DNA of 39,041 nucleotides, from positions 1-39,041 of the IMG/VR virus record IMGVR_UViG_3300024581_002769. The stretch is one strand, 5' to 3'. A model generated the notes under the pieces. The model did no database searches and had not been told where the DNA came from. It saw only the letters and a list, made by a program, of their open reading frames with translations. The DNA comes from a virus. The position numbers and the translations under genes were made by a program. Below are positions 560 through 37,903 of this stretch, piece by piece; position 1 is the first letter of the stretch, and the number at the start of each line of letters is the position of its first letter.

Positions 560-1687
560 TTAAGTTTCGCAAATAAGCATATTAAAATACTCTTCTTTTG
601 TAAGTGAAATCAAATCATCTTCTTTTGAGTTGTAAAGAGGTAATTCATCATTTTCAATATATAATGTATCTCCTTGTCTTTTAAATAATACTTCTTTGCC
701 TTTTGAAATTAAGTTCTTAACTTCATTATAAACTTTTCTATCTATTTTATGAACGCTTGCTATTGCATCTAAAGGTTCTCTGTACTTGTCTATCCAAATC
801 CATGCTTCCTCATTAGTAGAAGTACACCAACATCTTACCGCGTAAGCTAGTTCCCCGCTTTCTACTTCATCAGATAATTCACTAACATCTATACTATAAA
901 CTTCATATATATTATGTTTTACAAATGAATATCTATCGTATTTTTTAGTAAAAGTATAACCTTCCTTTTCTGATTCTGAGAAATCACCATCTTTGCTGTA
1001 CCATCCATCTTTTTCAGCAAATCTATAGTAGTTCATTTCTTTTCCATCTACTGAAATTCTTTTTTTTGTTTTTGAATATTTAAAAAATTCAACTGGGTTT
1101 ATACAGTCAAAAGCTAACACTTGAGTAGATTTGCAATTTATTAAAAAAGCCTCTTCCATTGTGATAGGATCTATAGTTTCATAAATACCTTCTAAGTAAT
1201 TTAATAATTTATTAGTATACCTATCATCCGTTACTTTTGTTCCATTCAATAAAACGGATTCATTTATCATTTTATGAACAAACTCAATTATTTCTTCTGA
1301 ATCTTTAATATCATTATTAAATACTATTTTTGTTTTAAGATCATCTAAAGTATAGTTGTATATAGATAAAACTTTTTCAAATGCAGTTTTTGTATCAAAA
1401 TCTCCTTCAATTGAATTTATTATTTTTACAACTTTACTTTTATCCAAATTTCTTTCTACTAAATTTGGATAAAATTCTCTTTCTTTAAAAATTTCAAATG
1501 TCTTATATTTTGCTCTCATTAATTTACAAAAGAACTCTATATTATAATTCTCTTTATTTTTATTAGAATTTAATATACCTAAGGCATTTATACTATAATT
1601 AATTGACCCTTTTGATATAAAAAGACATTTTTTTAAAAAGTCTTTTTGTTCTTCTGTTAATTTGTTTCTTAAATCTTTTGTTTCCAT
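560..1687 (-). CDS. Hypothetical protein, 375 aa
   Basis: Long ORF with ATG start, directly downstream of promoter cassette A1. No motif recognised. Confidence 0.7.
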   Translation of the reverse strand: METKDLRNKLTEEQKDFLKKCLFISKGSINYSINALGILNSNKNKENYNIEFFCKLMRAKYKTFEIFKEREFYPNLVERNLDKSKVVKIINSIEGDFDTKTAFEKVLSIYNYTLDDLKTKIVFNNDIKDSEEIIEFVHKMINESVLLNGTKVTDDRYTNKLLNYLEGIYETIDPITMEEAFLINCKSTQVLAFDCINPVEFFKYSKTKKRISVDGKEMNYYRFAEKDGWYSKDGDFSESEKEGYTFTKKYDRYSFVKHNIYEVYSIDVSELSDEVESGELAYAVRCWCTSTNEEAWIWIDKYREPLDAIASVHKIDRKVYNEVKNLISKGKEVLFKRQGDTLYIENDELPLYNSKEDDLISLTKEEYFNMLICET

Positions 1688-1719: not shown

Positions 1720-1770
1720 CAAATGTAATTTTTTTTATAGTGCGATTTTAAACTTTAACACTATTTAACA
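1720..1770 (-). promoter_or_regulatory. Class-A promoter cassette A1: TGTTAAA-N3-TGTTAAA-N26-TACATTTG (minus strand)
   Basis: -7 box TAnnTTTG at 1720-1727, TGTTAAA repeats at 1754-1760 and 1764-1770. Same 51-bp geometry as five other loci. The ATG of the 560-1687 gene lies 32 nt downstream. Confidence 0.6.
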
Positions 1771-2468: not shown

Positions 2469-3185
2469 TTATTTTTTGTTTAATTTTTCGTTATTAACAA
2501 TTGAATTTATTTTATCTTTAACTATTTCCATAATATCTTTAATCGAATTTATAATGTCTTCGTTACGATCTACTCTTATAATATTGATTTGCAATCCCTC
2601 TATCAAATCAGGATCATAGGTTATAAAATCACACCATTTACGCCCTGTAATCCATAAATAACCTTGTATCTGATATATATAATCATTGTTATATATTTCG
2701 CCTGTCATAAGACTTTTTAAATGATTACCACCATTATAAGGACATTTAACCTCTATTATACCTTCACTCCCTACAAAACCGTCTGGTGTTCCTCCTATGA
2801 AATCATCGTATTTAATAAATGATTGTTCTGATATAACTTTATTACCTGTATACTCTTGATATTTTAAAATCGCCTCTCCTTCATAGTCATTACCATGTTG
2901 CATCTCTTTACTTGACACATTTAGCCTTCCTAATCCATTTGACACGTTCCCGCTTTTCAAAAGTCTTTCCCAGGCTATTTTGTAAATCAACTTTTCAGAT
3001 GTCATAGATTTTGAAACCGTATAGGTTTTTTTGTCTTTAGATTTCACGATCAATTTTCCAAAATTAGACCCCGTAATCATTCCTAAACGATCTCTATACC
3101 ATTTATCTGTAGAATCTTCTACATTAATTGTTTCGATATAATCATCATTTGTTATATCCTTTCCTATTTCTTTTAACCAATTCAT
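2469..3185 (-). CDS. YqaJ-like (lambda Exo-type, PD-(D/E)XK) recombination exonuclease
   Basis: RLGMITGSNFGKL near the N-terminus and TPDGF...GIIEVKCP catalytic motif. The track start at 3191 is TTG; the first ATG is at 3185. Confidence 0.8.
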   Translation of the reverse strand: MNWLKEIGKDITNDDYIETINVEDSTDKWYRDRLGMITGSNFGKLIVKSKDKKTYTVSKSMTSEKLIYKIAWERLLKSGNVSNGLGRLNVSSKEMQHGNDYEGEAILKYQEYTGNKVISEQSFIKYDDFIGGTPDGFVGSEGIIEVKCPYNGGNHLKSLMTGEIYNNDYIYQIQGYLWITGRKWCDFITYDPDLIEGLQINIIRVDRNEDIINSIKDIMEIVKDKINSIVNNEKLNKK

Positions 3186-3187
3186 AA

Positions 3188-3679
3188 TCAATATATTGTT
3201 TCTGTTGAATTTAAATGCGATCCAAATAATCTACCTATTTTTTTTGCAGCATTACTTATTGCAAAACTTAATGCTGCAGGAACATTTTTATGTAATGCCT
3301 TAGGGTTCAATTTTGTAAAATCTGTTGGATGAGCATTTTTTGTAACCTCTATTGGAACAGCACCTACTCCAGCATATGTAAGCCAATCACCTAAAATAGG
3401 ATGGTAAACTTTAAGCTGTACATGTATAACAACTGAATTTCCTAGTACCCTTGGGTCTCCTTGTTCTACTTGCCAAAAAGGATATATTTCATTCAACAAT
3501 TCCTCAACAATTCTAATAGGCAAATAATTCGCATTTTGTGAATATTTATTTTGTTTAATCCAATTCTTTGAAGGGCTTTTATTAACTAATGATTTAAATT
3601 CTTGTAAGTTCTCATATTTTTTAACCCCATCTTTATCTACTGGTATTAATTCGTAATTTGAATGTTTTTCTATTGACAT
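3188..3679 (-). CDS. Single-strand annealing protein, Rad52/Sak-like
   Basis: NANYLPIRIVEELLNEIYPFWQVE resembles the Rad52-fold core. Adjacent to the exonuclease and SSB genes. Confidence 0.55.
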   Translation of the reverse strand: MSIEKHSNYELIPVDKDGVKKYENLQEFKSLVNKSPSKNWIKQNKYSQNANYLPIRIVEELLNEIYPFWQVEQGDPRVLGNSVVIHVQLKVYHPILGDWLTYAGVGAVPIEVTKNAHPTDFTKLNPKALHKNVPAALSFAISNAAKKIGRLFGSHLNSTETIY

Positions 3680-3814: not shown

Positions 3815-4114
3815 TTAAAATGTTTCGGGTATATAATTATCTTTTATTTCTTTCTCCAATATCTTTAAATCGGATATATGTAGTTCTTGTAAATCTCCAT
3901 TTTTATCGAAATAATTAATATTAGAACAATACAGTTTTCTATCGTATACTGTTATACAATTAACGTCTGTATCCTCGTCTACTTTATATTCTATTAAGTA
4001 ATCAAATTGAATTGAACAGGCATCATATGTTTCAATTTCTATAAAGCCATTTTGTGAATTTTCATTATGATCTTCAATTTCAATGTCGAACGGTTTTATT
4101 CTGTAAATTTCCAT
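3815..4114 (-). CDS. Hypothetical protein (99 aa from ATG 4114)
   Basis: The track start at 4132 is a TTG lying inside the TATATTTG -7 box. The first ATG (MEIYRIKPF...) is at 4114. Confidence 0.65.
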   Translation of the reverse strand: MEIYRIKPFDIEIEDHNENSQNGFIEIETYDACSIQFDYLIEYKVDEDTDVNCITVYDRKLYCSNINYFDKNGDLQELHISDLKILEKEIKDNYIPETF

Positions 4115-4129
4115 AAATTTATTTTTATA

Positions 4130-4180
4130 CAAATATACAAAATAACAACGTTAATTTTATAAGTTTAACATATTTTAACA
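4130..4180 (-). promoter_or_regulatory. Class-A promoter cassette A2
   Basis: TATATTTG at 4130-4137, TGTTAAA repeats at 4164-4170 and 4174-4180. Exact N26 and N3 spacing. Confidence 0.6.
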
Positions 4181-4183
4181 TAA

Positions 4184-4210
4184 TAAAAAAACCAGCCAAA
4201 TAAGGCTGGT
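4184..4210 (-). terminator. Rho-independent terminator
   Basis: Minus strand ACCAGCC-TTATTT-GGCTGGT followed by a T7-8 run. Lies downstream of the 4299-4745 gene. Confidence 0.7.
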
Positions 4211-4272
4211 TAAAAAAATAATTAATTTTAAATTATGAAAATGAAAAACCTAAAACAAAGATTTGTTACATG

Positions 4273-4298: not shown

Positions 4299-4745
4299 TT
4301 ATAAATCGTCATTAAAATATTTATCAATTATTTCTTTTGTTTTTTCAAACCCAATTGAAAAACAAGCATAATAACCGTTTTTTAAATGACTTTTAATCAC
4401 TTCATGCTGTGCTTTTATATGTTCTCCTTTTTTTCCTGCAAAATAATCACCGTTTTTTTTGAATAATCTAGTAGGCTCTTTATGACTCTTGTCTTCAAAT
4501 TCCTTTTTTAATTCAATAAATAATCCTGAATATTTTTTATTCGGCTTAGGTATAAATAAATCACTTGTGCCTTTTAAGTTTCCTAAATACTTAAATTTAT
4601 AACGTTCAAAAGGTGTTTTTTTACTTTCAGTATTGCAAGCTATAGGATTGATATTGTACTGGTCCTTTACATAATTAACTATATTATGCTGTAAATGATC
4701 CTCTTCTCCTAAAAACTTATAAAATGGATTTCTTTTTATACTCAT
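4299..4745 (-). CDS. VRR-NUC domain nuclease (PD-(D/E)XK)
   Basis: GTSDLFIP...YSGLFIELKK matches the VRR-NUC G-x-PD...E-x-K pattern. Confidence 0.65.
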   Translation of the reverse strand: MSIKRNPFYKFLGEEDHLQHNIVNYVKDQYNINPIACNTESKKTPFERYKFKYLGNLKGTSDLFIPKPNKKYSGLFIELKKEFEDKSHKEPTRLFKKNGDYFAGKKGEHIKAQHEVIKSHLKNGYYACFSIGFEKTKEIIDKYFNDDL

Positions 4746-5143: not shown

Positions 5144-5436
5144 AAGTTATTTATTAAGTCACGACAAATAAAAGGAGGTACACCCATGTATTTACTCATT
5201 AAAAATACATTTGGATTTTTATTACCTTTTAAATAGAATTTTGCTTTTTTATTAATTTCTTCTAATTCATTTTTACAATAATTAAACTCATTATTACTAA
5301 TTTGTTTTCCGTCAATATTAATTCCAGTGTAATTATATTTATAAATTTTTCCATTTTTATTTTTAGAAGTCATATTTACATTATATAATTCATTTATTAA
5401 TTTTGATAGTATTAAATTTTTACGCCTTTTTTCCAT
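5140..5436 (-). CDS. Hypothetical protein, 98 aa
   Basis: ORF with ATG start, in operon context. Confidence 0.55.
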   Translation of the reverse strand: MEKRRKNLILSKLINELYNVNMTSKNKNGKIYKYNYTGINIDGKQISNNEFNYCKNELEEINKKAKFYLKGNKNPNVFLMSKYMGVPPFICRDLINNL

Positions 5437-5629
5437 TCCAAAATACTAATTTACTATTAATTCCTTTTTTAACAACTATTTTTTCATCCTTATGTAATTG
5501 ATTAAGAATTTTTTTTAAATCTATTATATCAATATTTAGTACATTCTTTAAAACAGCTAATGATGTTCCATTATGACCTCCTGTTGCATTATGTTTGTCT
5601 TGTAAAAATTTAATTAAATCTTTTTTCAT
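5420..5629 (-). CDS. Hypothetical small protein, possibly winged-helix
   Basis: ORF with TAATG overlap to the methyltransferase stop. Helix-rich basic sequence; weak call. Confidence 0.5.
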   Translation of the reverse strand: MKKDLIKFLQDKHNATGGHNGTSLAVLKNVLNIDIIDLKKILNQLHKDEKIVVKKGINSKLVFWNGKKA

Positions 5630-6850: not shown

Positions 6851-7009
6851 TTAAATACTTTTAAATCCTACACAATCATTTTCATCTCCATTAATTCTTT
6901 TTTCAAAATATTGCCTACTCAATAAATCACTATTAAAATCGCATCTTTCTATTGTTAAGTCTTGACTTTGATAAAAATTACAACAAGTATCACATATACA
7001 TTTTTCCAT
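6851..7009 (-). CDS. Small Cys-rich protein (52 aa), below the ORF-track threshold
   Basis: Hand translation MEKCICDTCCNFYQSQDLTIERCDFNSDLLSRQYFEKRINGDENDCVGFKSI*. The ATG lies 28 nt downstream of cassette A3. Confidence 0.5.
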   Translation of the reverse strand: MEKCICDTCCNFYQSQDLTIERCDFNSDLLSRQYFEKRINGDENDCVGFKSI

Positions 7010-7037
7010 AAATTTAATTTTATTATTAATTACATTA

Positions 7038-7088
7038 CAAAATTAGTTTTTTTTATATTGCGATTTTAAACTTTAACACTATTTAACA
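7038..7088 (-). promoter_or_regulatory. Class-A promoter cassette A3
   Basis: TAATTTTG at 7038-7045, TGTTAAA repeats at 7072-7078 and 7082-7088. Exact N26 and N3 spacing. Confidence 0.6.
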
Positions 7089-7296
7089 GTTCAGTATTAA
7101 ATATTAAATGATCGTAATTTTTGTAATATGATGGCTTGTGGTTATATATAAATCTTTCATCACTTACATTACCATTGTATATGCAGGGTTCGAAGTTAAA
7201 TATATCAAATCCAGCACTTACATTACCGTTGTATATGTATGATTCGAAGTTCCATATAGACCATTCAGCACTTATATATTCGTTAATTATTTTCAT
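7066..7296 (-). CDS. 18-residue-repeat protein, copy B (3 units)
   Basis: MKIINEY start, family units, C-terminus YDHLIFNTELLNSVKV. Confidence 0.7.
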   Translation of the reverse strand: MKIINEYISAEWSIWNFESYIYNGNVSAGFDIFNFEPCIYNGNVSDERFIYNHKPSYYKNYDHLIFNTELLNSVKV

Positions 7297-10015: not shown

Positions 10016-10171
10016 TCACTTTAGTAATTCTTTTAACTTTTTTTCTTTTAAATAATCTAAATTTCTCTCTCCATTTAGACACATTGATAAATAAGGCTGT
10101 GAAACTCCTAGCTTATCAGCTAACCAGCTTATTTTTAAACCTTTTTCTTTTATTCTTATCTTAAAATTCAT
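10016..10171 (-). CDS. Small HTH DNA-binding protein (51 aa, Cro/XRE-like), below the ORF-track threshold
   Basis: Hand translation MNFKIRIKEKGLKISWLADKLGVSQPYLSMCLNGERNLDYLKEKKLKELLK*, with HTH core SWLADKLGVSQPYLS. Confidence 0.6.
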   Translation of the reverse strand: MNFKIRIKEKGLKISWLADKLGVSQPYLSMCLNGERNLDYLKEKKLKELLK

Positions 10172-10175
10172 AAAA

Positions 10176-10183
10176 CAAATATA
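10176..10183 (-). promoter_or_regulatory. TATATTTG -7 box immediately upstream of the HTH gene
   Basis: Exact TATATTTG, only 4 nt before the ATG at 10171, implying a leaderless or very short leader. Confidence 0.45.
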
Positions 10184-10318: not shown

Positions 10319-10876
10319 TTAATCGTCCAAAAGCTGTTTTTTTAACTCATTAAATGACTCTAAAGATATTTCAATTTCTTTACTATCAATCGTTATTTTC
10401 TTTTTATCATATATATAAACAAAACCTTTTCTTCCATAATCATTTAGTTTTATTTTTTTGTTAGACTCTAATTTTATAACCTCAAAAATATCTCTTCTAA
10501 TTACTACACAATCTTCACCTGTATCAAACGTGCAATTAAAACCTGTAGTAAACGTGCAATTAAAACCTGTTTTAAACGTGCAAATTTCACCTGTATTAAA
10601 CGTACAATTAGACCATGTATAAAACGTACAATCAGAACCTGTATTAAACGTACAATTAGACCATGTATAAAACGTACAATTAGACCCTGTTTTAAACGTG
10701 CAATGATGCCCCGTAGTAAACGTGCAAATAGAACCTGTTTTAAAAGTCACTCCGTTTATATTTGAAAAATCTAAAACTAAATTTCTTTCTGTTGTAGAAA
10801 ACGTTTTAGTTTTTTCACACCAAGTGTATTTACTTTTGTCTAACTGTACTCCGAATTGTGTTACTGAAAAATTCAT
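10319..10876 (-). CDS. Octapeptide-repeat, Cys-ladder protein (185 aa)
   Basis: Ten consecutive units C-T-F-x-T-(G/W)-x-x, with Cys at residues 51, 59 ... 123. Confidence 0.75.
   Translation of the reverse strand: MNFSVTQFGVQLDKSKYTWCEKTKTFSTTERNLVLDFSNINGVTFKTGSICTFTTGHHCTFKTGSNCTFYTWSNCTFNTGSDCTFYTWSNCTFNTGEICTFKTGFNCTFTTGFNCTFDTGEDCVVIRRDIFEVIKLESNKKIKLNDYGRKGFVYIYDKKKITIDSKEIEISLESFNELKKQLLDD
10508..10750 (-). repeat. Tandem 24-bp coding repeats (about 10 units)
   Basis: Direct read of aaacgt(g/a)caat...cctgt periodicity. Confidence 0.85.
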
Positions 10877-10884
10877 TTTTTTTA

Positions 10885-11010
10885 TTTTTTTAATTATTAA
10901 TTACACTGCTAAATTAAGCATTAAATCCATATAAGAAATAATTTTAACATACTTTAACATTATAGGTTGTTTGTGGTTGTTTGAACAACTTGAAACAACT
11001 AAACAACCAT
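10885..11010. repeat. About 126-bp intergenic block, near-identical to 14002-14127
   Basis: By-eye alignment shows only a handful of mismatches. Contains cassette A4 and a GTTGTT/AACAAC inverted-repeat cluster at 10965-11008. Confidence 0.85.
10909..10959 (-). promoter_or_regulatory. Class-A promoter cassette A4 (variant -7 box TAATTTAG)
   Basis: -7 box at 10909-10916, TGTTAAA repeats at 10943-10949 and 10953-10959. Exact N26 and N3 spacing. Confidence 0.55.
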
Positions 11011-11019
11011 TTATAAATA

Positions 11020-11049
11020 ATAAAACCGCACTAAATAAATAATGCGGTT
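11020..11049 (-). terminator. Rho-independent terminator
   Basis: Minus strand AACCGCA-loop-TGCGGTT followed by TTTTATTATTT. Just downstream of the 11078-11800 gene. Confidence 0.6.
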
Positions 11050-11077: not shown

Positions 11078-11800
11078 TTATAATTGCTGTAATCTAATTT
11101 GTAGTTTTAATTCTTGAATAGTAATAGGCTTGTCATTTAAACCGCTAGAAATTAAAGGATTTACTGAAACCGTTACTTTATCTCCTTGCTTTAAATCTAA
11201 TGCTAAGGTTGATGATTTACTCTGCAAATCAACATCAGCAATAGCAATTACATTTCCAACCTCTATACCGTTAACGTTAATAGATATAAGGCAATGCGAT
11301 AACGCCAACAAACTAGCAGAATAGTTGATTTCATAAATATAATCTTTTGGAGCAGTAAAAACACCGCTTAATTCATCAAAAGAACCTCCTTCAATATTAT
11401 CAATAGTTTCAGTATAATTTGTTATAAATAAAGGATAACTTCCATTTGGATCTTCTAACCTTATATTTTTAACATATGCTTCGCTTAATTCATCCTTTTT
11501 TGAAAAGCTTATACTTTGCCATTCTATACCGTCATGAAAAAATAAACCTTGACCGTAAACAACTCCATCTTGTTCCAAATTTTCATTAGTATTGTATACT
11601 AAAAATCCTTTTTGAGGGTCTTTAATTGGGTTAACAGAATTGTCAATAATTGAATTTAACGAAACAATAGGCAAGCCTATAGCCTTATCGTTAGTTTCTG
11701 TTTTAATGTCTAATAATGTTTCTTGATGTGGCTCGTTTGTGCCGATACCTACTTGAGCTACAGATATACATGGAAGTAATGATAATAATACTTTTTTCAT
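11078..11800 (-). CDS. Secreted protein with N-terminal signal peptide (240 aa), unknown function
   Basis: MKKVLLSLLPCISVAQ/VGIGTNEP signal-peptide-like N-terminus. Followed by its own terminator. Confidence 0.7.
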   Translation of the reverse strand: MKKVLLSLLPCISVAQVGIGTNEPHQETLLDIKTETNDKAIGLPIVSLNSIIDNSVNPIKDPQKGFLVYNTNENLEQDGVVYGQGLFFHDGIEWQSISFSKKDELSEAYVKNIRLEDPNGSYPLFITNYTETIDNIEGGSFDELSGVFTAPKDYIYEINYSASLLALSHCLISINVNGIEVGNVIAIADVDLQSKSSTLALDLKQGDKVTVSVNPLISSGLNDKPITIQELKLQIRLQQL

Positions 11801-12856: not shown

Positions 12857-13230
12857 GATAAAATTAATTTTCTATTAAAAATTTTTTGTAATTTGTGTCC
12901 TTTATTTTTATACCATTCTATGCATTTATGTACTGATCTTCTTGACCCACTATATGGATAATAATCATTATCAAATAAACATTTATAACTATAATTGTTA
13001 AATTCTTTTATATACTCTTTTTTAAAATCCTTTTGCTTTTTTTCTACAAAAATAGCTTCATTTAAAGGTATGGCATCCGTTCCAAAATGCATTTTAACAA
13101 CTAAAAAATTCTCTCCCTTTTCCATTGTTTTGGCTAAAACAACTTTTTCGTACTCTTCCATTGCTAATATACCTAAACTTGGTACATCAATCTCATAAAT
13201 GAATTTTATTTTATCTCCTATTTTAATCAT
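12853..13230 (-). CDS. Hypothetical protein, 125 aa
   Basis: ORF with ATG start. Confidence 0.55.
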   Translation of the reverse strand: MIKIGDKIKFIYEIDVPSLGILAMEEYEKVVLAKTMEKGENFLVVKMHFGTDAIPLNEAIFVEKKQKDFKKEYIKEFNNYSYKCLFDNDYYPYSGSRRSVHKCIEWYKNKGHKLQKIFNRKLILS

Positions 13231-13681
13231 TTTTTATTTTTTTTAATTCTTTATTAATTCTTTTGCTTTTAGACTCTAAGTATTTTAAATCTTTATTAAT
13301 TAAATAAATTAATCTTTCAGGTGTCTGTGAATTTGGTAGTAAATAAAAACTCAATAAAAAAATATCATTATCTATTTTATCTAATGATTTTTCAAGTAAT
13401 TCTTTTCTTTGAATATTATCAAATATACACTCGTAAACTGTTACTTTATTGTTTGATCTAGTGCTTATTTTACTTTCTTCACATTCTTTTATATAACAAG
13501 TTTCTTTTAATTCAGTAATTCGACCGCTTATTTCATTCTTATTAACTCCAATCTCATTAATTATATCATCTAAAGAACATTTAACAAGTCTTTTTATTAC
13601 TTTATAAACTTCTTTTCTTTTTGATGGTAGATTGTCTATTAATGAGTTGAAAGTGTTGTTTCTGTTTTGTATTGATTTCAT
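13223..13681 (-). CDS. Putative winged-helix DNA-binding protein, 152 aa
   Basis: KEVYKVIKRL..CSLDDIINEIGVNKNEISGRITELKETCYIKE looks like a MarR-type wHTH. Weak call. Confidence 0.45.
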   Translation of the reverse strand: MKSIQNRNNTFNSLIDNLPSKRKEVYKVIKRLVKCSLDDIINEIGVNKNEISGRITELKETCYIKECEESKISTRSNNKVTVYECIFDNIQRKELLEKSLDKIDNDIFLLSFYLLPNSQTPERLIYLINKDLKYLESKSKRINKELKKIKND

Positions 13682-14001
13682 AGTAATTCAGCATTAAAAA
13701 TTAAATCATCATACTTTTTGTAATAGCAGGGTTCGGAGTTAAATATATCCCATCCAGCAGTTACATTACCGTTGTATGTGCATGGTGCGGAGTTAAATAT
13801 ACACCTTTTAGCAATTACATTTGCTTTGTATATGCACGGTGCGGAGTTATATATAGACCTTCCAGCAGTTACATTATCATTGTATATGCAGGGTGCGTAG
13901 TTAGCTATATACCTTTCAGTAGTTACATTACCGTTGTATATGCAGGGTGCTTTGTTTTGTATAGACAATTCAGAATTTACATTTGCATTAATTATTTTCA
14001 T
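13678..14001 (-). CDS. 18-residue-repeat protein, copy D (5 units)
   Basis: MKIINANV start, family units, C-terminus EPCYYKKYDDLIFNAELL. Confidence 0.75.
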   Translation of the reverse strand: MKIINANVNSELSIQNKAPCIYNGNVTTERYIANYAPCIYNDNVTAGRSIYNSAPCIYKANVIAKRCIFNSAPCTYNGNVTAGWDIFNSEPCYYKKYDDLIFNAELL

Positions 14002-14127
14002 TTTTTTAATTATTAATTACACTGCTAAATTAAGCATTAAATCCATATAAGAAATAATTTTAACATACTTTAACATTATAGGTTGTTTTTGGTTGTCTAA
14101 ACAACTTGAAACAACTAAACAACCATA
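14002..14127. repeat. About 126-bp intergenic block, near-identical to 10885-11010
   Basis: By-eye alignment. Contains cassette A5 and a GTTGTT/AACAAC cluster at 14081-14124. Confidence 0.85.
14025..14075 (-). promoter_or_regulatory. Class-A promoter cassette A5 (variant -7 box TAATTTAG)
   Basis: -7 box at 14025-14032, TGTTAAA repeats at 14059-14065 and 14069-14075. Exact spacing. Confidence 0.55.
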
Positions 14128-14160
14128 AAAAACCCCAATTTAACCGAAGTCAAAAAGGGG
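14127..14160 (-). terminator. Rho-independent terminator with UUCG loop
   Basis: Minus strand CCCCUUUUUGAC-UUCG-GUUAAAUUGGGG followed by U6. Confidence 0.6.
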
Positions 14161-21044: not shown

Positions 21045-23451
21045 ATTTTATTAATCCTTTTATAGTTAATGTATTTTCACTTCTTTTATGATTAAATGCT
21101 TCATCACCAAAAGGGAATATGTTTTTTCCTCCATAAGGCGTTGGTACTTTTAAATATCCAAAGCTTGTACTGTCATCGTTATTAAATCCATATCGCCAAT
21201 TGTTGAATATTTCAAAAAATTCAAAGAAATCTACATTATGCATTTTAATTTCTATATAATCACCATTGAACAAAGGAAACAAACCGGAATTTTGTAAATC
21301 TAATTGAGTGAAATTTTGATCTAATGTTATTTCGTTAGGATATTCATTTGGGAAAACCGAAGTATTAACTTTTACAGTTACATCTCCGTTATTCTTGTAA
21401 TCATTTACTATTATTTCAGTATTTAAATCCTTCTTTGTTAATCCAGACCCCCATAATGGATACCATCTAAAACATTGGTATTTTGGATTATGTATAACGT
21501 TCGAACTAGTATTTGAATCACTTACCCCAGTTAATATATCGAATCCCTCGTTAGTTCTATTCTTAATTATATTATTTCTAGTTATTTGTATTGTGTTATC
21601 AGAAACTCCTGTTTGTATCGACGGCTGTGGACCTAAATTAATAGAATTAAATGTTAATGAATTTATAGTGTATACTCCTGTATTTAACCCAGTTAATATA
21701 TTTATACTATCTCCTACTTTAAAATTATCTGTAAAAGATTTTTCATATTGATTTATAATTAGTTCTCCTGATTCATTAACATGTTCTGTATTTGGGAATA
21801 AAGCATTATCTGTATAAGTGTTTAAAAAAACAGTATTTAATAATACAATATCATCATCCTTATCATTGGTGCTATTTGAATTATCATTTATACCTTCATT
21901 TATAAGATATTCATCAGTAGAAGTTTCGCTTTCAATATCTAGTTTTTTCTTTAATGATTTTATAGGAGTTGTTAATTCTGCTTTTGTATTAAAATTAAAT
22001 AAATCTTCATTTTCCTCACTTGAAAACTTCTTGTATCCAGTTAGTAAATTATTGAAATGAATATCATTATATTGTTTTAGTACAAACTCATCCCTCGTGT
22101 AATCCCTATTAGTCAAATCAAAAATTTCAATATCTTTAAAAAAGAAATTTATATCTTCAATTTTTAAAGTTTCTGATCTCAAATCGTATCCTAATGCCAT
22201 TATTTTACTTAATCCTTTTTCAAATAATGATTCAAAATTAGTCTTTAAAGTTTGATTTGATATGTTAGGTCTCAAACCTATAAATGAGTTAATATAGTTT
22301 TCATAATAACGACCGTTTAACGATAAAATATTACTATCTAATAATGTTTTACCATCCGTATATTGTTCACATAATTTGCTTATAGAATTGAATAATAATA
22401 CTGATTTATTTTTCATCGCAAAATCAGGATTATTTAATAATAATTCATATTGAAAGTTACCTGAAACACTAAAGTTTGAATTGTTAGGTATAGCATTATC
22501 GTCCAATAAGCAAAATATTTGTAAAGAATCCCCTTGATTTAAGTTAGGTATAGAATAACTTTTATTTGTTATATCTATAACAGTTTGTTTAAATGTTCCT
22601 AAATCCTCTATTGTAGAAGATTCTAACTCAACCGGAACTCCTAATACTCCATTTATAAGGTATACTAATTTAAAATCATTAGTTAGTAAAGGATTATTTA
22701 CATCTTGCCTATATGATATATTTAAGTTTAGTATTTTTAAACTTAATCCTAAATAATTAGCAGAAGCTCTAAACAAAGGATTATTAAGGTTATCGTAAGC
22801 ATTATCAAACTCTACATTAAATGGAGTTGCTCTTGGTCTAAATCTATCTGATGGAGATACAAAAGTAGCATTTACAACATCTCTTACTGCGTTCCATTCA
22901 TTTTTTAAAGAATCATCTATTTTTTTGAAATAAATATCATCAGTTGATACTGGTGTAATAGAATTATTATCTAAATTAGTATCTGAAAATAAATCTACTG
23001 TAATATCTTTTCGAGTGTTAAATTTATTTTGCTCTTCTCTTTTCTTTATTTTAAACCTTGCGTAGTTATTTTCTATTCCGGATTTAAACTCAACATCATT
23101 TAAATTAAATTGATAATCATCTTCAAGTAATGAAGTTTCTAGTCCATCCTTACCTTTTACAAACCATCTAAATATAATTTGAGAATCACCGCCTAAATCA
23201 TCATAAGTATTTTTTAATAAATAAAATGTATTTGGATCATGATTTTCATATATAGATAATTCAGTTTCCTCTCCAAGTATAAAATTATCAACTCCGTAAA
23301 ATTCATCATTTCTATCTACAATAGTATCTACTTCATCAAATTCACTTGGTTTTTTTATATTGTAAACACCAACAAATGAACCCTCTAAAACTTCAATTTC
23401 AAAGCGTTCACTTGTATTGTCTTCATATGTTAAATTTACAATATTAATTAC
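21034..23451 (-). CDS. Distal-tail / tail-associated (Dit-Tal-like) protein. Open frame of 805 codons with no ATG/GTG/TTG before 22776
   Basis: Hand translation shows the frame stays open from the TGA at 23452-23454 down to the track ORF (TTG start at 22776). The upstream 225 codons read as protein (..NLTYEDNTSERFEIEVLEG..). First gene after TMP and the lipoprotein. Confidence 0.6.
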   Translation of the reverse strand, partial: VINIVNLTYEDNTSERFEIEVLEGSFVGVYNIKKPSEFDEVDTIVDRNDEFYGVDNFILGEETELSIYENHDPNTFYLLKNTYDDLGGDSQIIFRWFVKGKDGLETSLLEDDYQFNLNDVEFKSGIENNYARFKIKKREEQNKFNTRKDITVDLFSDTNLDNNSITPVSTDDIYFKKIDDSLKNEWNAVRDVVNATFVSPSDRFRPRATPFNVEFDNAYDNLNNPLFRASANYLGLSLKILNLNISYRQDVNNPLLTNDFKLVYLINGVLGVPVELESSTIEDLGTFKQTVIDITNKSYSIPNLNQGDSLQIFCLLDDNAIPNNSNFSVSGNFQYELLLNNPDFAMKNKSVLLFNSISKLCEQYTDGKTLLDSNILSLNGRYYENYINSFIGLRPNISNQTLKTNFESLFEKGLSKIMALGYDLRSETLKIEDINFFFKDIEIFDLTNRDYTRDEFVLKQYNDIHFNNLLTGYKKFSSEENEDLFNFNTKAELTTPIKSLKKKLDIESETSTDEYLINEGINDNSNSTNDKDDDIVLLNTVFLNTYTDNALFPNTEHVNESGELIINQYEKSFTDNFKVGDSINILTGLNTGVYTINSLTFNSINLGPQPSIQTGVSDNTIQITRNNIIKNRTNEGFDILTGVSDSNTSSNVIHNPKYQCFRWYPLWGSGLTKKDLNTEIIVNDYKNNGDVTVKVNTSVFPNEYPNEITLDQNFTQLDLQNSGLFPLFNGDYIEIKMHNVDFFEFFEIFNNWRYGFNNDDSTSFGYLKVPTPYGGKNIFPFGDEAFNHKRSENTLTIKGLIKYES

Positions 23452-34677: not shown

Positions 34678-34721
34678 TTACAAATATACAAATAATTTTT
34701 GAAATTAAAATAAGTTCATAA
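34678..34721 (-). promoter_or_regulatory. Class-B promoter block B1 (TATATTTG -7 box at 34681-34688)
   Basis: 44-bp block about 90 percent identical to 35161-35204. Upstream of the portal. Confidence 0.55.
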
Positions 34722-35160: not shown

Positions 35161-35204
35161 TTACAAATATACAAATAATTTTATTAAATAAAATAAGTTT
35201 ATAA
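35161..35204 (-). promoter_or_regulatory. Class-B promoter block B2 (TATATTTG at 35164-35171)
   Basis: 44-bp block about 90 percent identical to 34678-34721. Confidence 0.5.
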
Positions 35205-35213
35205 TTTTATTTT

Positions 35214-35711
35214 TTATAAAATATCTTTAGCTAATATATACTTGCCTTCCTTGCTTAAATATTCTCTGTTATAATGCTTAACGACACCATCAATAATTCT
35301 AACCTCTTGTTTAACATCATATCTTTTTATGTCTTCTTTGTTTTTAAGTGAATTACTCATGTTATCTATTAACTTTTCACTTTCAACAAGTTGTTTTTCT
35401 GTTAATTGTAACTTTTCTCTTAGAAACTCGTTTTCAAGTTCTAATTTTTCTTTAATTGTTAATTTGTGCTGTACCTTAAAAAGTTTTTTAGTTTTCTTTT
35501 TACCGAATCTTTCGGAGTATATTTTTTTGGCTGATGAAAAATCTCTATTTTCTATACTAGACCAAAAATAATGCCCCTCTTCTGTGGATGACCAAGTGAA
35601 ACACTCCTGTATTGATTTATTTTTTATATTTTCTTCAGAAACATATTCTCGTGATCTTTTCAAAGCTAATTTATATAGCTTAGGCATATCTCTTAAATCT
35701 TCTATTTTCAT
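35214..35711 (-). CDS. Hypothetical protein with C-terminal coiled coil, 165 aa
   Basis: ORF with ATG start. Confidence 0.55.
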   Translation of the reverse strand: MKIEDLRDMPKLYKLALKRSREYVSEENIKNKSIQECFTWSSTEEGHYFWSSIENRDFSSAKKIYSERFGKKKTKKLFKVQHKLTIKEKLELENEFLREKLQLTEKQLVESEKLIDNMSNSLKNKEDIKRYDVKQEVRIIDGVVKHYNREYLSKEGKYILAKDIL

Positions 35712-35716
35712 TTATA

Positions 35717-36091
35717 TTATTTTAAAAGTTCTTTATTCTCGTGTATGTTGCCTATTATTTCAAACTCAAAAATCTTAAGTTCTTTATATAAGCTATCTGA
35801 CAATGATTTATCTTGATCGAAAGAGTAATCCAAAGCCCAAAATCCTTTTTTATTATTCCAAAAAACTTGTCTTTTTGATTTTTCAATCAATCCATCTACT
35901 TCTACTTCATCACTTAATATATCCCCTTCAAATATCTTCTTTCCGTTCTTATCTTTTAAGCCTGTGTATTGCATGACTTCAACATGATTTAACGTTAATA
36001 ATTTATTTAGATTTCTAACCCTCTTTATAAAATCCCAATTCGTCATTTTATCAATTGCTTTATTATAAGCTCTAAATTCTATTTCTCTCAT
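35717..36091 (-). CDS. YopX-family protein
   Basis: MREIEFRAY..., MQYTGLKDKNGKKIFEGDIL, EIIGNIHENKELLK match the YopX consensus. Confidence 0.85.
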   Translation of the reverse strand: MREIEFRAYNKAIDKMTNWDFIKRVRNLNKLLTLNHVEVMQYTGLKDKNGKKIFEGDILSDEVEVDGLIEKSKRQVFWNNKKGFWALDYSFDQDKSLSDSLYKELKIFEFEIIGNIHENKELLK

Positions 36092-36112: not shown

Positions 36113-36289
36113 TTATTCAATATCAATATCAAATAAATGATCTTCAATATCATTAAGTAAACAAGAACCATCGCATAACGTTCCGTCATAATATATCTCT
36201 TCACTTAAAATTCCTATTTCATCTTTATCTTTTAATTTATTTAAGTATTTTAAACTAGCTTTTAATAATTCTATTGATCTCTCATTCAT
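36113..36289 (-). CDS. Small acidic protein (58 aa), below the ORF-track threshold
   Basis: Hand translation MNERSIELLKASLKYLNKLKDKDEIGILSEEIYYDGTLCDGSCLLNDIEDHLFDIDIE*. Downstream of cassette A6. Confidence 0.5.
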   Translation of the reverse strand: MNERSIELLKASLKYLNKLKDKDEIGILSEEIYYDGTLCDGSCLLNDIEDHLFDIDIE

Positions 36290-36322
36290 TTTTAATTATT
36301 TTTTTTGTTATTAATTACATTA

Positions 36323-36373
36323 CAAATATATAGATTAAATACATGTAATAAATAATTTTAACATACTTTAACA
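36323..36373 (-). promoter_or_regulatory. Class-A promoter cassette A6
   Basis: TATATTTG at 36323-36330, TGTTAAA repeats at 36357-36363 and 36367-36373. Exact spacing. Immediately after the terL stop. Confidence 0.6.
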
Positions 36374-36379
36374 TTTTAA

Positions 36380-37903
36380 CTATCTTATATTGCCTAAATC
36401 GATATGCTTCATTAGTCCTTGCTCGTACATGTGCCATGCTCCATAACCCACTGCATCAAGACTATGCTCGGGACATGATGGATCGGGTTCTATGATTGTT
36501 TTACCTCTTGTTATTCGCTCTTGCAATGAATAAACCTCCAGTTCTTTATTCATATTACCTTCTTTATTGTCTACGTAAAAAACCTCTATTTCTTGAACTA
36601 ATTTGATACGCTCCATTATGTTCGGTTTATTTACTTTTACAGCGTTAATTCCTGCTTTAATTAACTGTATAACCTTGCCATCACTAGAGTTTTTATCATA
36701 GTCTTGACTTTCACATATAAGTTGCGTGTGAGTTCCTTGTTTTAAAGTTGAATTATTTAAAAAGTAAGTTGATAAAGGTATTTTAACGCCGTTATTATCT
36801 AACATTTCCGATTCAGGCTTATAAACGTGTAATTTAACGTATAATTTGCCATCATAATATTTTAGGCTAACTAATGTACAAGGGTCATACATACCGAAAT
36901 CAGTAGCGTATAATTCTAAATAAGGTAATGAATTGTAATAATCGTCATAAATGGGTTTCCAATTAGTGAATATTCTATTCGGTGATTCTGCTGATTTACC
37001 AAGTCCGTATACTTCCCAATGCCATGGCCTGGCTGTTTTTTGAATTTCATTACTCCATGTTCTTAAAACGTGTGATTTTTGATAATCTGTTAATTCTAAC
37101 TTATCAATAAATAATTCTGCACTTTCTCGATCTTTTATTTGTTTTAACCGATTGAATTGTTCGTTAAATTCAATATCTAAATGGTTTTCTATTTTGTATT
37201 TTTCATAAAATGATTTATTGTCTTTTGGAATGAATTTAGCTATTAATGGCTGATATGCTAGTATTTCATTCCTTACATTTGTGGAAAGGAAGTTGTTTTT
37301 TAAAAAGGTTGAATGTAAAGATATTGTGTCATTCCTATCTTTTAATTCCTCCAACCATTGAAGTTTTTGTTTTGGGTTTAAGTCGATTATTATAACACCT
37401 CTTGTACGTTGCTTTAATTGGTTAAATACTTCGGGATCGAATTTATAAGGCTCGTTAATCCATATAACGTCGTTACCCATACCAATAATATCCTCTACAC
37501 TATCAGCACCATCAAAAAGCAAAACAGAGCCTTTTGGCTCGTATGTGAATGTATGATTAGATTTATTATGTTTAAGTAATTTATAAACTCCTTCTTTCCT
37601 AAGATATTCATTGTATTGTTCTATTGATATAGTGCCTTCCTCAAATTCTTTCCTCCTACCCATAGGGTCTTTAAGAAATTCAATAAATTCTTTTTCTACA
37701 ATTTTACGGCAAGAAGTTTTTGTATCACGCATAACTGTTTGCGTATGACTTGGTTTCTCAAGTAAATTAAGAAATGCCATTTGCATCAAAGAATGCGTCT
37801 TACTAGATCGAGAAGCCCCCTCGTTAATAATTATTCTATAACCATCTTTTATGGCTTTCTCAATATCTGAATAAACATTTGTAAACGCTATGTTAATGTT
37901 CAT
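36380..37903 (-). CDS. terL: Terminase large subunit
   Basis: N-terminal ATPase with Walker A-like EGASRSSKTHS and Walker B-like DVIWINEP. C-terminal nuclease-like region. Size 507 aa. Confidence 0.85.
   Translation of the reverse strand: MNINIAFTNVYSDIEKAIKDGYRIIINEGASRSSKTHSLMQMAFLNLLEKPSHTQTVMRDTKTSCRKIVEKEFIEFLKDPMGRRKEFEEGTISIEQYNEYLRKEGVYKLLKHNKSNHTFTYEPKGSVLLFDGADSVEDIIGMGNDVIWINEPYKFDPEVFNQLKQRTRGVIIIDLNPKQKLQWLEELKDRNDTISLHSTFLKNNFLSTNVRNEILAYQPLIAKFIPKDNKSFYEKYKIENHLDIEFNEQFNRLKQIKDRESAELFIDKLELTDYQKSHVLRTWSNEIQKTARPWHWEVYGLGKSAESPNRIFTNWKPIYDDYYNSLPYLELYATDFGMYDPCTLVSLKYYDGKLYVKLHVYKPESEMLDNNGVKIPLSTYFLNNSTLKQGTHTQLICESQDYDKNSSDGKVIQLIKAGINAVKVNKPNIMERIKLVQEIEVFYVDNKEGNMNKELEVYSLQERITRGKTIIEPDPSCPEHSLDAVGYGAWHMYEQGLMKHIDLGNIR

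Follow-up and report, generated by a model that had tools for sequence, protein, structure and literature searches.

The stretch of DNA studied here (the window) is the complete IMG/VR virus record IMGVR_UViG_3300024581_002769, a phage genome of 39,041 base pairs (bp) with a 94-bp terminal repeat, a guanine-plus-cytosine (GC) content of about 27% and all of its genes on the minus strand. Six exact copies of a 51-bp cassette, TGTTAAA-N3-TGTTAAA-N26-TAnnTT(T/A)G, were found in the window, all of them on the minus strand; in each, two direct heptamers are followed, after exactly 26 nucleotides (nt), by a -7 box of the Bacteroidota type. These cassettes, and their probable binder, a host response regulator of the RprY type, are the subject of this report. 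A first-pass annotation had described the same six copies, and its coordinates and the invariant N26 geometry proved exact in every case. The cassettes (c1 to c6) and the boxes that follow five of them are listed below.

1720-1770, minus strand: cassette c1; -7 box TACATTTG at 1720-1727; heptamers within the last codons of the paralog 1748-2086
4130-4180, minus strand: cassette c2; -7 box TATATTTG at 4130-4137; no TGTAATTAATAA box; terminator before it at 4190-4211
7038-7088, minus strand: cassette c3; -7 box TAATTTTG at 7038-7045; heptamers within the last codons of the repeat-protein paralog 7066-7296
10909-10959, minus strand: cassette c4; -7 box TAATTTAG at 10909-10916; terminator before it at 11024-11049
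14025-14075, minus strand: cassette c5; heptamers at 14069-14075 and 14059-14065; -7 box TAATTTAG at 14025-14032; hairpin with T-run and GTTGTT/AACAAC cluster before it
36323-36373, minus strand: cassette c6; distal heptamer at 36367-36373, proximal heptamer at 36357-36363, 26-nt spacer, -7 box TATATTTG at 36323-36330; starts 6 nt past the stop codon of terL (36380-37903)
36308-36319, minus strand: TGTAATTAATAA box of c6, exactly 3 nt after the -7 box
1705-1716, 7023-7034, 10894-10905 and 14010-14021: identical copies of the TGTAATTAATAA box

Geometry and sequence of the six cassettes

The double heptamer, a direct head-to-tail repeat with a half-site period of 10 bp, occurs six times where 0.02 occurrences are expected, and none of 100 shuffles of the sequence reached six. 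When one or two mismatches were allowed, 12 double-heptamer sites were recognized (the six perfect ones and six more) against about five expected by chance. Because this relaxation adds sites only at chance level, the phage has six perfect sites and no degenerate tail. Every cassette is located directly 5' of the first gene of a unit, either in intergenic DNA or overlapping the end of the preceding gene, and the -7 box is separated from the ATG by 15-33 nt (the gap had previously been given as 18-32 nt).

Four of the six -7 boxes fit TAnnTTTG exactly and the other two read TAATTTAG, so that TAnnTT(T/A)G stands at N26 in all six, in support of the first-pass view that these are promoter cassettes with a Bacteroidota -7 box. 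Neither TTTG nor TTG was found at the position of a -33 element (spacer positions 3-8) in any of the six, and the double heptamer itself, at about -40 to -55, differs from the canonical -33 element, in agreement with the first-pass annotation. Assuming that the -7 box lies at about -12 to -5, the half-sites fall at about -55 to -49 and -45 to -39. Direct repeats one helical turn apart, at a fixed distance from the -7 box, also agree with the earlier suggestion that the double heptamer may be a regulator-binding site.

The cassettes are partly related to one another. c4 and c5 belong to a 140-bp duplication that is 96% identical, and c6 is 64% alike over that span. c1 and c3 have 24 of the 26 spacer bases in common and both overlap the 3' ends of paralogous repeat-protein genes, a family with five copies. 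c2 has only the motif and the geometry in common with the other five. In short, the six cassettes represent three sequence lineages, not six independent events.

Two further sequence features accompany the cassettes. TGTAATTAATAA is present exactly in five of the six, as the first-pass annotation had noted, always 3 nt past the -7 box (and not 3-4 nt, as stated there), and no other exact copy exists in the window. Because of this position it covers the predicted transcription start and the early leader, and it could either belong to the leader or serve as operator of a phage protein, for instance the 51-amino-acid (51-aa) helix-turn-helix (HTH) protein described below. TATATTTG, previously said to be intergenic throughout, has 11 minus-strand copies, of which seven are intergenic and four lie inside genes; the intergenic enrichment is nevertheless real, because intergenic DNA makes up only about 6-9% of the genome (an estimate from which 22417-23447, about 1 kilobase (kb) that seems non-coding under ATG-only start calling, was left out). 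Directly upstream of c4 and c5 only, at 10965-11015 and 14081-14131, a cluster of GTTGTT/AACAAC repeats and inverted repeats is found, which may be a second operator or a structural element.

Cassettes in other viral contigs

IMG/VR was scanned with the full 51-bp N26 pattern, and control patterns with reversed order, N24 and N28 were run over the same database. The N26 cassette was recognized at no fewer than 117 loci, whereas the reversed order gave 0, N24 three and N28 17. Among 123 bare double heptamers sampled without bias, TAnnTTTG was most often offset by 26 (three sites) or 27 (four sites). Based on the excess of N26 over the controls and on this offset peak, the motif and its spacing appear to be strongly selected across many phages. 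De-duplication at 75% identity left 47 distinct viral cassettes among the matches listed, and in these neither the spacer nor the flanks are conserved outside the searched positions. Many of the viral cassettes are preceded by a terminator-like hairpin with a T-run, the ATG of the callable downstream gene is mostly 16-45 nt past the -7 box, and the downstream genes belong to more than 40 unrelated families of small proteins.

The cassette does not follow a phage lineage. Among 45 TerL-related viral loci (479 kb in total, GC 27-39%), no exact double heptamer and only one single-mismatch site were found, and the closest TerL relative (63% TerL identity) has no cassette after terL; the idea of a lineage trait was rejected on these grounds. 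In each of ten further phage records with a cassette, the exact sites number one or two, and six, as in the window, is exceptional. A cassette of the commonest viral family showed no match among GenBank phages, and a literature search for the motif string and for promoter motifs of Bacteroidota phages yielded nothing relevant. One viral contig (L379:2565-2611) contains four TGTTAAA units in perfect 10-bp tandem and a further GTTAAA unit, possibly a high-occupancy site.

Cassettes in Bacteroidota genomes

A genome collection was scanned with the N26 pattern, with the -7 box as TAnnTTTG. At least 120 loci were found, nearly all of them in Bacteroidota, including Pedobacter, Sphingobacterium, Mucilaginibacter, Dyadobacter, Arcicella, Flavobacteriales and Bacteroidales. 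The matches listed contain 102 distinct genomic cassettes, again with no conservation of the spacer; a TTG at spacer position 5 exists in only four of them and in only 11 of the 47 distinct viral ones. For 66 of the 109 listed genome loci with a callable downstream gene, that gene encodes one orthologous membrane protein of about 500-620 aa, a HisKA/HATPase sensor kinase. The gene after the kinase encodes an OmpR-family regulator, and in all six loci tested its best NCBIfam model was RprY, with Bacteroidota PhoB scoring far lower. The RprY model (NF051850) has a cut-off of 370 bits, which one of the six loci exceeds; the scores were 391.8 bits for L199, 355.7 for L144, 351.8 for L129, 309 for L147, 301.5 for L130 and 220 for L148. 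Sphingobacteriales, Flavobacteriales and Bacteroidales are represented among these six, two of which were not so placed. A cassette with identical geometry is thus found 5' of chromosomal rprX-rprY in dozens of Bacteroidota species of several orders. Because one-turn direct repeats have been kept 5' of a two-component operon in dozens of species, autoregulation by the OmpR-family regulator of that operon is indicated.

RprXY is conserved across many Bacteroidota, and it is the only essential two-component system of Bacteroides fragilis; when expressed in Escherichia coli, the B. fragilis RprXY perturbs OmpF/OmpC (PMC4072883). RprY of Porphyromonas gingivalis binds its own promoter as well as the ahpC, groES, clpB, dnaK and nqrA promoters (PMC3646045, PMC5706477, PMC6032018), and no published RprY binding motif was found in the searchable open literature.

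In the host promoters, third and fourth GTTAA units at a 10-11 bp phase are often present further upstream. In most of 20 Flavobacteriaceae rprX promoters, repeats of the type TGTTAAG-N4-GGTTAAA stand at an unchanged distance from the -7 box (33-34 nt). Many of these promoters (L312-L331) also have TGTTAAAaTGTTAAATTTG or a close variant just before the start codon of the kinase; two further heptamers 8 bp apart overlap the -7 box (TAAATTTG), leaving 2-5 nt before the ATG, and an inverted TTTAACA is located further upstream. This layout suggests that one and the same factor has sites for activation as well as for repression here, and that the kinase mRNA is leaderless.

Other genes that recur downstream of genome cassettes encode a CarbopepD_reg_2 protein (12 species) and a protein sorted by T9SS (type IX secretion system), both of envelope type, and a TetR regulator. 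The host sites appear to constitute a small regulon, as expected for a transcription factor. In five host genomes (25.9 megabases (Mb)), 29 exact double heptamers were counted, 1-15 in each, or about 1.1 per Mb, and the reversed control gave one. The density in the phage is 154 sites per Mb, about 140 times that of the hosts.

Transcription units and a second promoter class

The units that start at the six cassettes are as follows.

c1 unit: 560-1687 (375-aa protein), 314-547, then across the genome end towards terS/terL
c2 unit: 3815-4114, 3188-3679, YqaJ exonuclease 2469-3185, DUF3127 (SSB-like) 2111-2467, paralog 1748-2086
c3 unit: 6851-7009 through 4299-4745, with a Dam methylase and a weak VRR-NUC-like gene
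c4 unit: single gene 10319-10876 (Cys-repeat protein), then hairpin and T-run
c5 unit: 13678-14001 through 11078-11800, with a repeat protein, the 152-aa protein, MazG and a C1q-like protein; ends at the terminator 11024-11049
c6 unit: 36113-36289, YopX gene 35717-36091 and 35214-35711 (YopX island)

No terminator was seen at the end of the c1 unit, and its transcription may therefore run across the genome end into the terminase genes. Hairpin-plus-T-run terminators lie directly before c2, c4 and c5. The cassette class covers the non-structural half of the genome and the terminase unit, and no cassette is present in the virion and lysis block from 14.4 to 34.6 kb, so that the first-pass proposal of one (temporal) promoter class is a reasonable one. 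After c6, the order is heptamer-less promoters and terminators, then the portal-to-lysis block (34.6 to 14.4 kb). From the terminators and the placement of the cassettes it follows that the cassettes head insulated non-structural units and that a second promoter class exists, to which the following features belong.

34678-34721 and 35161-35204, minus strand: 44-nt heptamer-less promoter repeat ATTATTTGTATATTTGTAA, upstream of portal; second class, serving the virion block
10176-10183, minus strand: TATATTTG box with no heptamers; the ATG of the gene for the 51-aa Cro/CI-like HTH protein (10016-10171) follows after 4 nt
unit of this TATATTTG box: the 51-aa Cro/CI-like HTH protein, a DnaD-like loader and a helicase-like protein

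A strong terminator precedes the TATATTTG box of the 51-aa HTH gene (10172-10183). With the box only 4 nt from the ATG, the mRNA of this gene would be leaderless or nearly so, for which lambda cI transcribed from PRM offers a comparison. In c2 (4130-4145), TTTTG is found directly upstream of TATATTTG, as in the heptamer-less promoters at 35164-35178 and 34681-34695; because it combines this TTTTG-TATATTTG with the double heptamer, c2 is a hybrid of the two promoter classes.

In a comparison with GenBank phages, the window showed no match except for a stretch of 70 bp that belongs to a repeat; it is annotated as YopX in the matching records and maps to 35914-35985, within the YopX gene of the window (35717-36091). 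Half of the phage was searched against 401 genomes of one Bacteroidota class, and the matches were mainly to chromosomal DUF3127 genes, present in many of these genomes, which are 66-74% identical in DNA to the DUF3127 (SSB-like) gene 2111-2467. In Pedobacter sp. PAMC26386 (L147:6991-7359), a DUF3127 gene lies directly upstream of the rprX cassette, which may be a coincidence. A 30-bp stretch of the window (1610-1639) has a 97% identical match in one genome of the same class (G167:C1:190894-190923), which could be a CRISPR (clustered regularly interspaced short palindromic repeat) spacer and hence a clue to the host.

Proposed regulation by a host response regulator

Because the motif precedes both rprX-rprY and more than 100 unrelated phage loci, it is most likely that the non-structural genes of the phage have been placed under a host response regulator. 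The half-sites occupy the position of the OmpR promoter-proximal site in E. coli, and the absence of a -33-type element together with an upstream regulator site is typical of activator-dependent promoters. We consider it probable, judging from the distribution and layout of the motif, that the binder is a host RprY-type regulator that occupies the tandem 10-bp half-sites (at about -42 and -52) and through which sigma-A transcription of the non-structural operons is probably activated. That RprY is the binder, that its binding activates rather than represses, and where transcription starts are all inferred from sequence.

According to this proposal, each cassette would be a host Bacteroidota-type sigma-A promoter in which the -33 element is replaced by two 10-bp half-sites (TGTTAAAnnn, twice), and these half-sites would be the binding site of a host RprY-type regulator of the OmpR/PhoB family, the partner of the kinase RprX. 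RNA polymerase would be recruited by a regulator dimer that sits on a single helical face, at the fixed distance of 26 nt from the -7 box. Immediately after injection, the host machinery could then, without modification, transcribe the six non-structural units (replication-associated, recombination, methylase, MazG, YopX and terminase genes). The output of the six units would then track the activity of host RprXY. Dependence on an activator that B. fragilis cannot lose would be hard to escape by mutation, and phage expression would possibly be tied to the envelope or stress state sensed by RprX. A more far-reaching version has, in our estimate, somewhat less than an even chance of being right: that TGTTAAA-N3-TGTTAAA is the RprY recognition box, so far unpublished, that Bacteroidota phages have repeatedly and independently built portable activator-dependent promoters on it (with no -33 element and 26-27 nt from the -7 box), that six of them carry almost the entire non-structural programme of this phage, and that infection depends on and responds to the envelope or stress signalling of the host, a pathway that B. 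fragilis at least cannot lose.

Several results weigh against activation by RprY. Flavobacterium phage 11b has no such site, and the device is thus common but not universal. The rprX site of the Flavobacteriaceae, which are a plausible family for the host, departs from the perfect motif and has an 11-bp spacing. Only five of the 29 exact double heptamers in the five host genomes have an N26-spaced -7 box. Experiments have identified nqrA as an RprY target in P. gingivalis and B. fragilis; upstream of nqrA in four Bacteroidales genomes (not of the species with a proven target, which makes this a weak result), no double heptamer was found, and an isolated GTTAA exists in one. Apart from the DUF3127 genes, the search of the 401 genomes gave only short 30-bp matches of no clear meaning, and no host was identified. 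It could also be that the actual binder is some other host regulator of rprXY. Finally, RprY has been described as a repressor in P. gingivalis (PMC3646045).

One alternative is that the same host regulator acts as a brake, with RprY holding down the six promoters in certain host states, a switch for deferment or pseudolysogeny like that of Spo0A on phi29 and CtrA on Alphaproteobacteria phages. In P. gingivalis, RprY behaves like a repressor towards stress genes (PMC3646045); among phage-borne boxes for host regulators, the best-studied include cases of repression or deferment (PMC2731898, PMC9437464); and six sites would allow tight genome-wide control. However, the sites are wholly upstream of the core promoter, in a fixed helical phase and mostly with no -33 element, which is the classic activator-dependent layout, whereas for a site of repression only, overlap with the -7 box or the start would be more usual. 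The identical layout is found at the rprX promoter in dozens of species, and positive autoregulation is one common reading of such a layout at a regulator's own operon. We therefore regard a brake as unlikely.

The first-pass annotation had suggested, as one possibility, that the heptamers bind a phage-specific activator or repressor, with the 51-aa HTH protein and the 152-aa candidate with a winged HTH as proteins to try, and this suggestion is not supported. A DNA-binding protein of the phage would define a middle promoter class, and the host sites would be unrelated or mimicked; the candidates are the 51-aa HTH protein (10016-10171), the 152-aa protein (13223-13681) and a 69-aa winged-helix-like protein (5420-5629). 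Since a heptamer-less promoter of its own precedes the 51-aa Cro/CI-like gene, this protein could be made first, 13223-13681 has a weak HTH_36 match (E = 0.004), and the six cassettes stand against one or two in the ten other cassette-bearing records. However, a tblastn search of the window proteins against the 117 viral cassette loci found none common to more than 10 loci, with flanking and downstream genes unrelated, and a co-occurring phage regulator was rejected accordingly. The motif is also absent from the TerL relatives, 13223-13681 has one distant homologue only, and inverted repeats, not direct ones, are the typical targets of Xre-type HTH proteins. A phage-encoded RprY- or OmpR-like protein was likewise rejected: no Trans_reg_C domain was recognized by Pfam and PHROGs in about 36 window proteins, and RprY had no match in the whole window by tblastn or phmmer. 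The conservation of the motif at a chromosomal operon across many species requires that the hosts have a factor for it. A binder of phage origin is accordingly rather improbable.

We hold out little prospect for a third alternative, in which RNA polymerase reads the double heptamer directly, either as an UP-like element (also suggested by the first-pass annotation) contacted by the alpha C-terminal domains or through an extended sigma-A contact, as a constitutive booster. The position at about -39 to -55 and the two subsites one turn apart match the layout of the E. coli UP element, and the motif is A/T-rich and frequent in phages, which favour strong promoters. However, a generic UP element is disfavoured by the ribosomal RNA promoters of two host genomes, one from Pedobacter and one from Flagellimonas, which contain A/T tracts and no GTTAA repeats; exact copies number only 1-15 per host genome, concentrated at a single regulatory operon and at a few genes of envelope type; and UP elements are degenerate, unlike a heptamer that is exact and has an invariant G.

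That the repeats are mere copies of one duplicated intergenic block with functionless heptamers is scarcely credible: c4/c5/c6 and c1/c3 are clearly related by duplication, but c2 has only motif and geometry in common with them, and the 47 distinct viral and 102 distinct genomic families lack spacer conservation while the reversed control gave 0. A Pho-box reading (TTAACA in 11-bp phase) was also rejected, as no such sites above chance were found in the window.

If the activation of these promoters by RprY holds true, the cassettes would provide the first sequence definition of an RprY box that we are aware of, and the RprY regulon would become predictable in gut, oral, soil and marine species of Bacteroidota. 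They would add a further case of phages tapping host signalling, with infection predicted to depend on RprY activity. The 51-bp cassette would also be a compact promoter module of practical interest for Bacteroidota expression tools; strong phage promoters are already in use for expression in this phylum. As a caution, a repeated phage motif should not be called phage-specific before host genomes are checked.

Comparison with known systems

The E. coli OmpR sites F3 and C3 (of ompF and ompC) and the PhoB pho boxes consist of head-to-tail half-sites with a 10-11 bp period, located upstream of the -35 element or replacing it, and serve as class I/II activator sites. The cassettes resemble them in the tandem head-to-tail half-sites, the period and the position directly upstream of, or in place of, a promoter element. 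They differ in the core, which is -35/-10 in E. coli and of the Bacteroidota -7 type here, and in the half-site, here GTTAAA. With the canonical Bacteroidota sigma-A promoter (-33 TTTG, -7 TAnnTTTG) the cassettes have in common the -7 box and a short A-rich leader; unlike it, all six in the window lack the -33 element, and two carry TAATTTAG instead of TAnnTTTG.

Host response-regulator boxes in phages are already established for CtrA, Spo0A and PhoB (earlier work on host PhoR-PhoB control of cyanophage-borne phosphate genes was reportedly done by Zeng and Chisholm in 2012), and the cassette would be an example from Bacteroidota. The CtrA site is TTAA-N7-TTAA and differs from the direct TGTTAAA repeat with its 10-bp period. 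For CtrA boxes in Alphaproteobacteria phages, binding and regulation have been shown experimentally (Mascolo et al. 2022, PMC9437464). Those boxes and the cassettes are alike in being sites of an OmpR-family host regulator (here a putative one), concentrated at promoters, unusual in density and independent in origin in unrelated lineages (PMC9437464). However, the sites of the CtrA index phage are clustered in one large intergenic region, whereas here six dispersed promoters have one site each, 26 nt from the -7 box, and are known from sequence alone. The Spo0A boxes of the Bacillus phages phi29 and Nf are likewise host response-regulator sites in a phage genome that affect transcription and replication (PMC2731898). 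Spo0A, however, belongs to another regulator family and acts there by repression, the lytic cycle being suppressed and the genome thus able to become trapped in the spore (PMC2731898), whereas the geometry found here suggests activation. The phosphate genes of cyanophages under host PhoR-PhoB also rely on a host two-component regulator of the OmpR/PhoB family (PMC10976474); there, a few auxiliary metabolic genes are controlled, whereas here the six promoters head most of the non-structural units. What is particular to the present case is that the box lies within a fixed-geometry, -33-less module that recurs in many unrelated phages and, in this one, heads six units.

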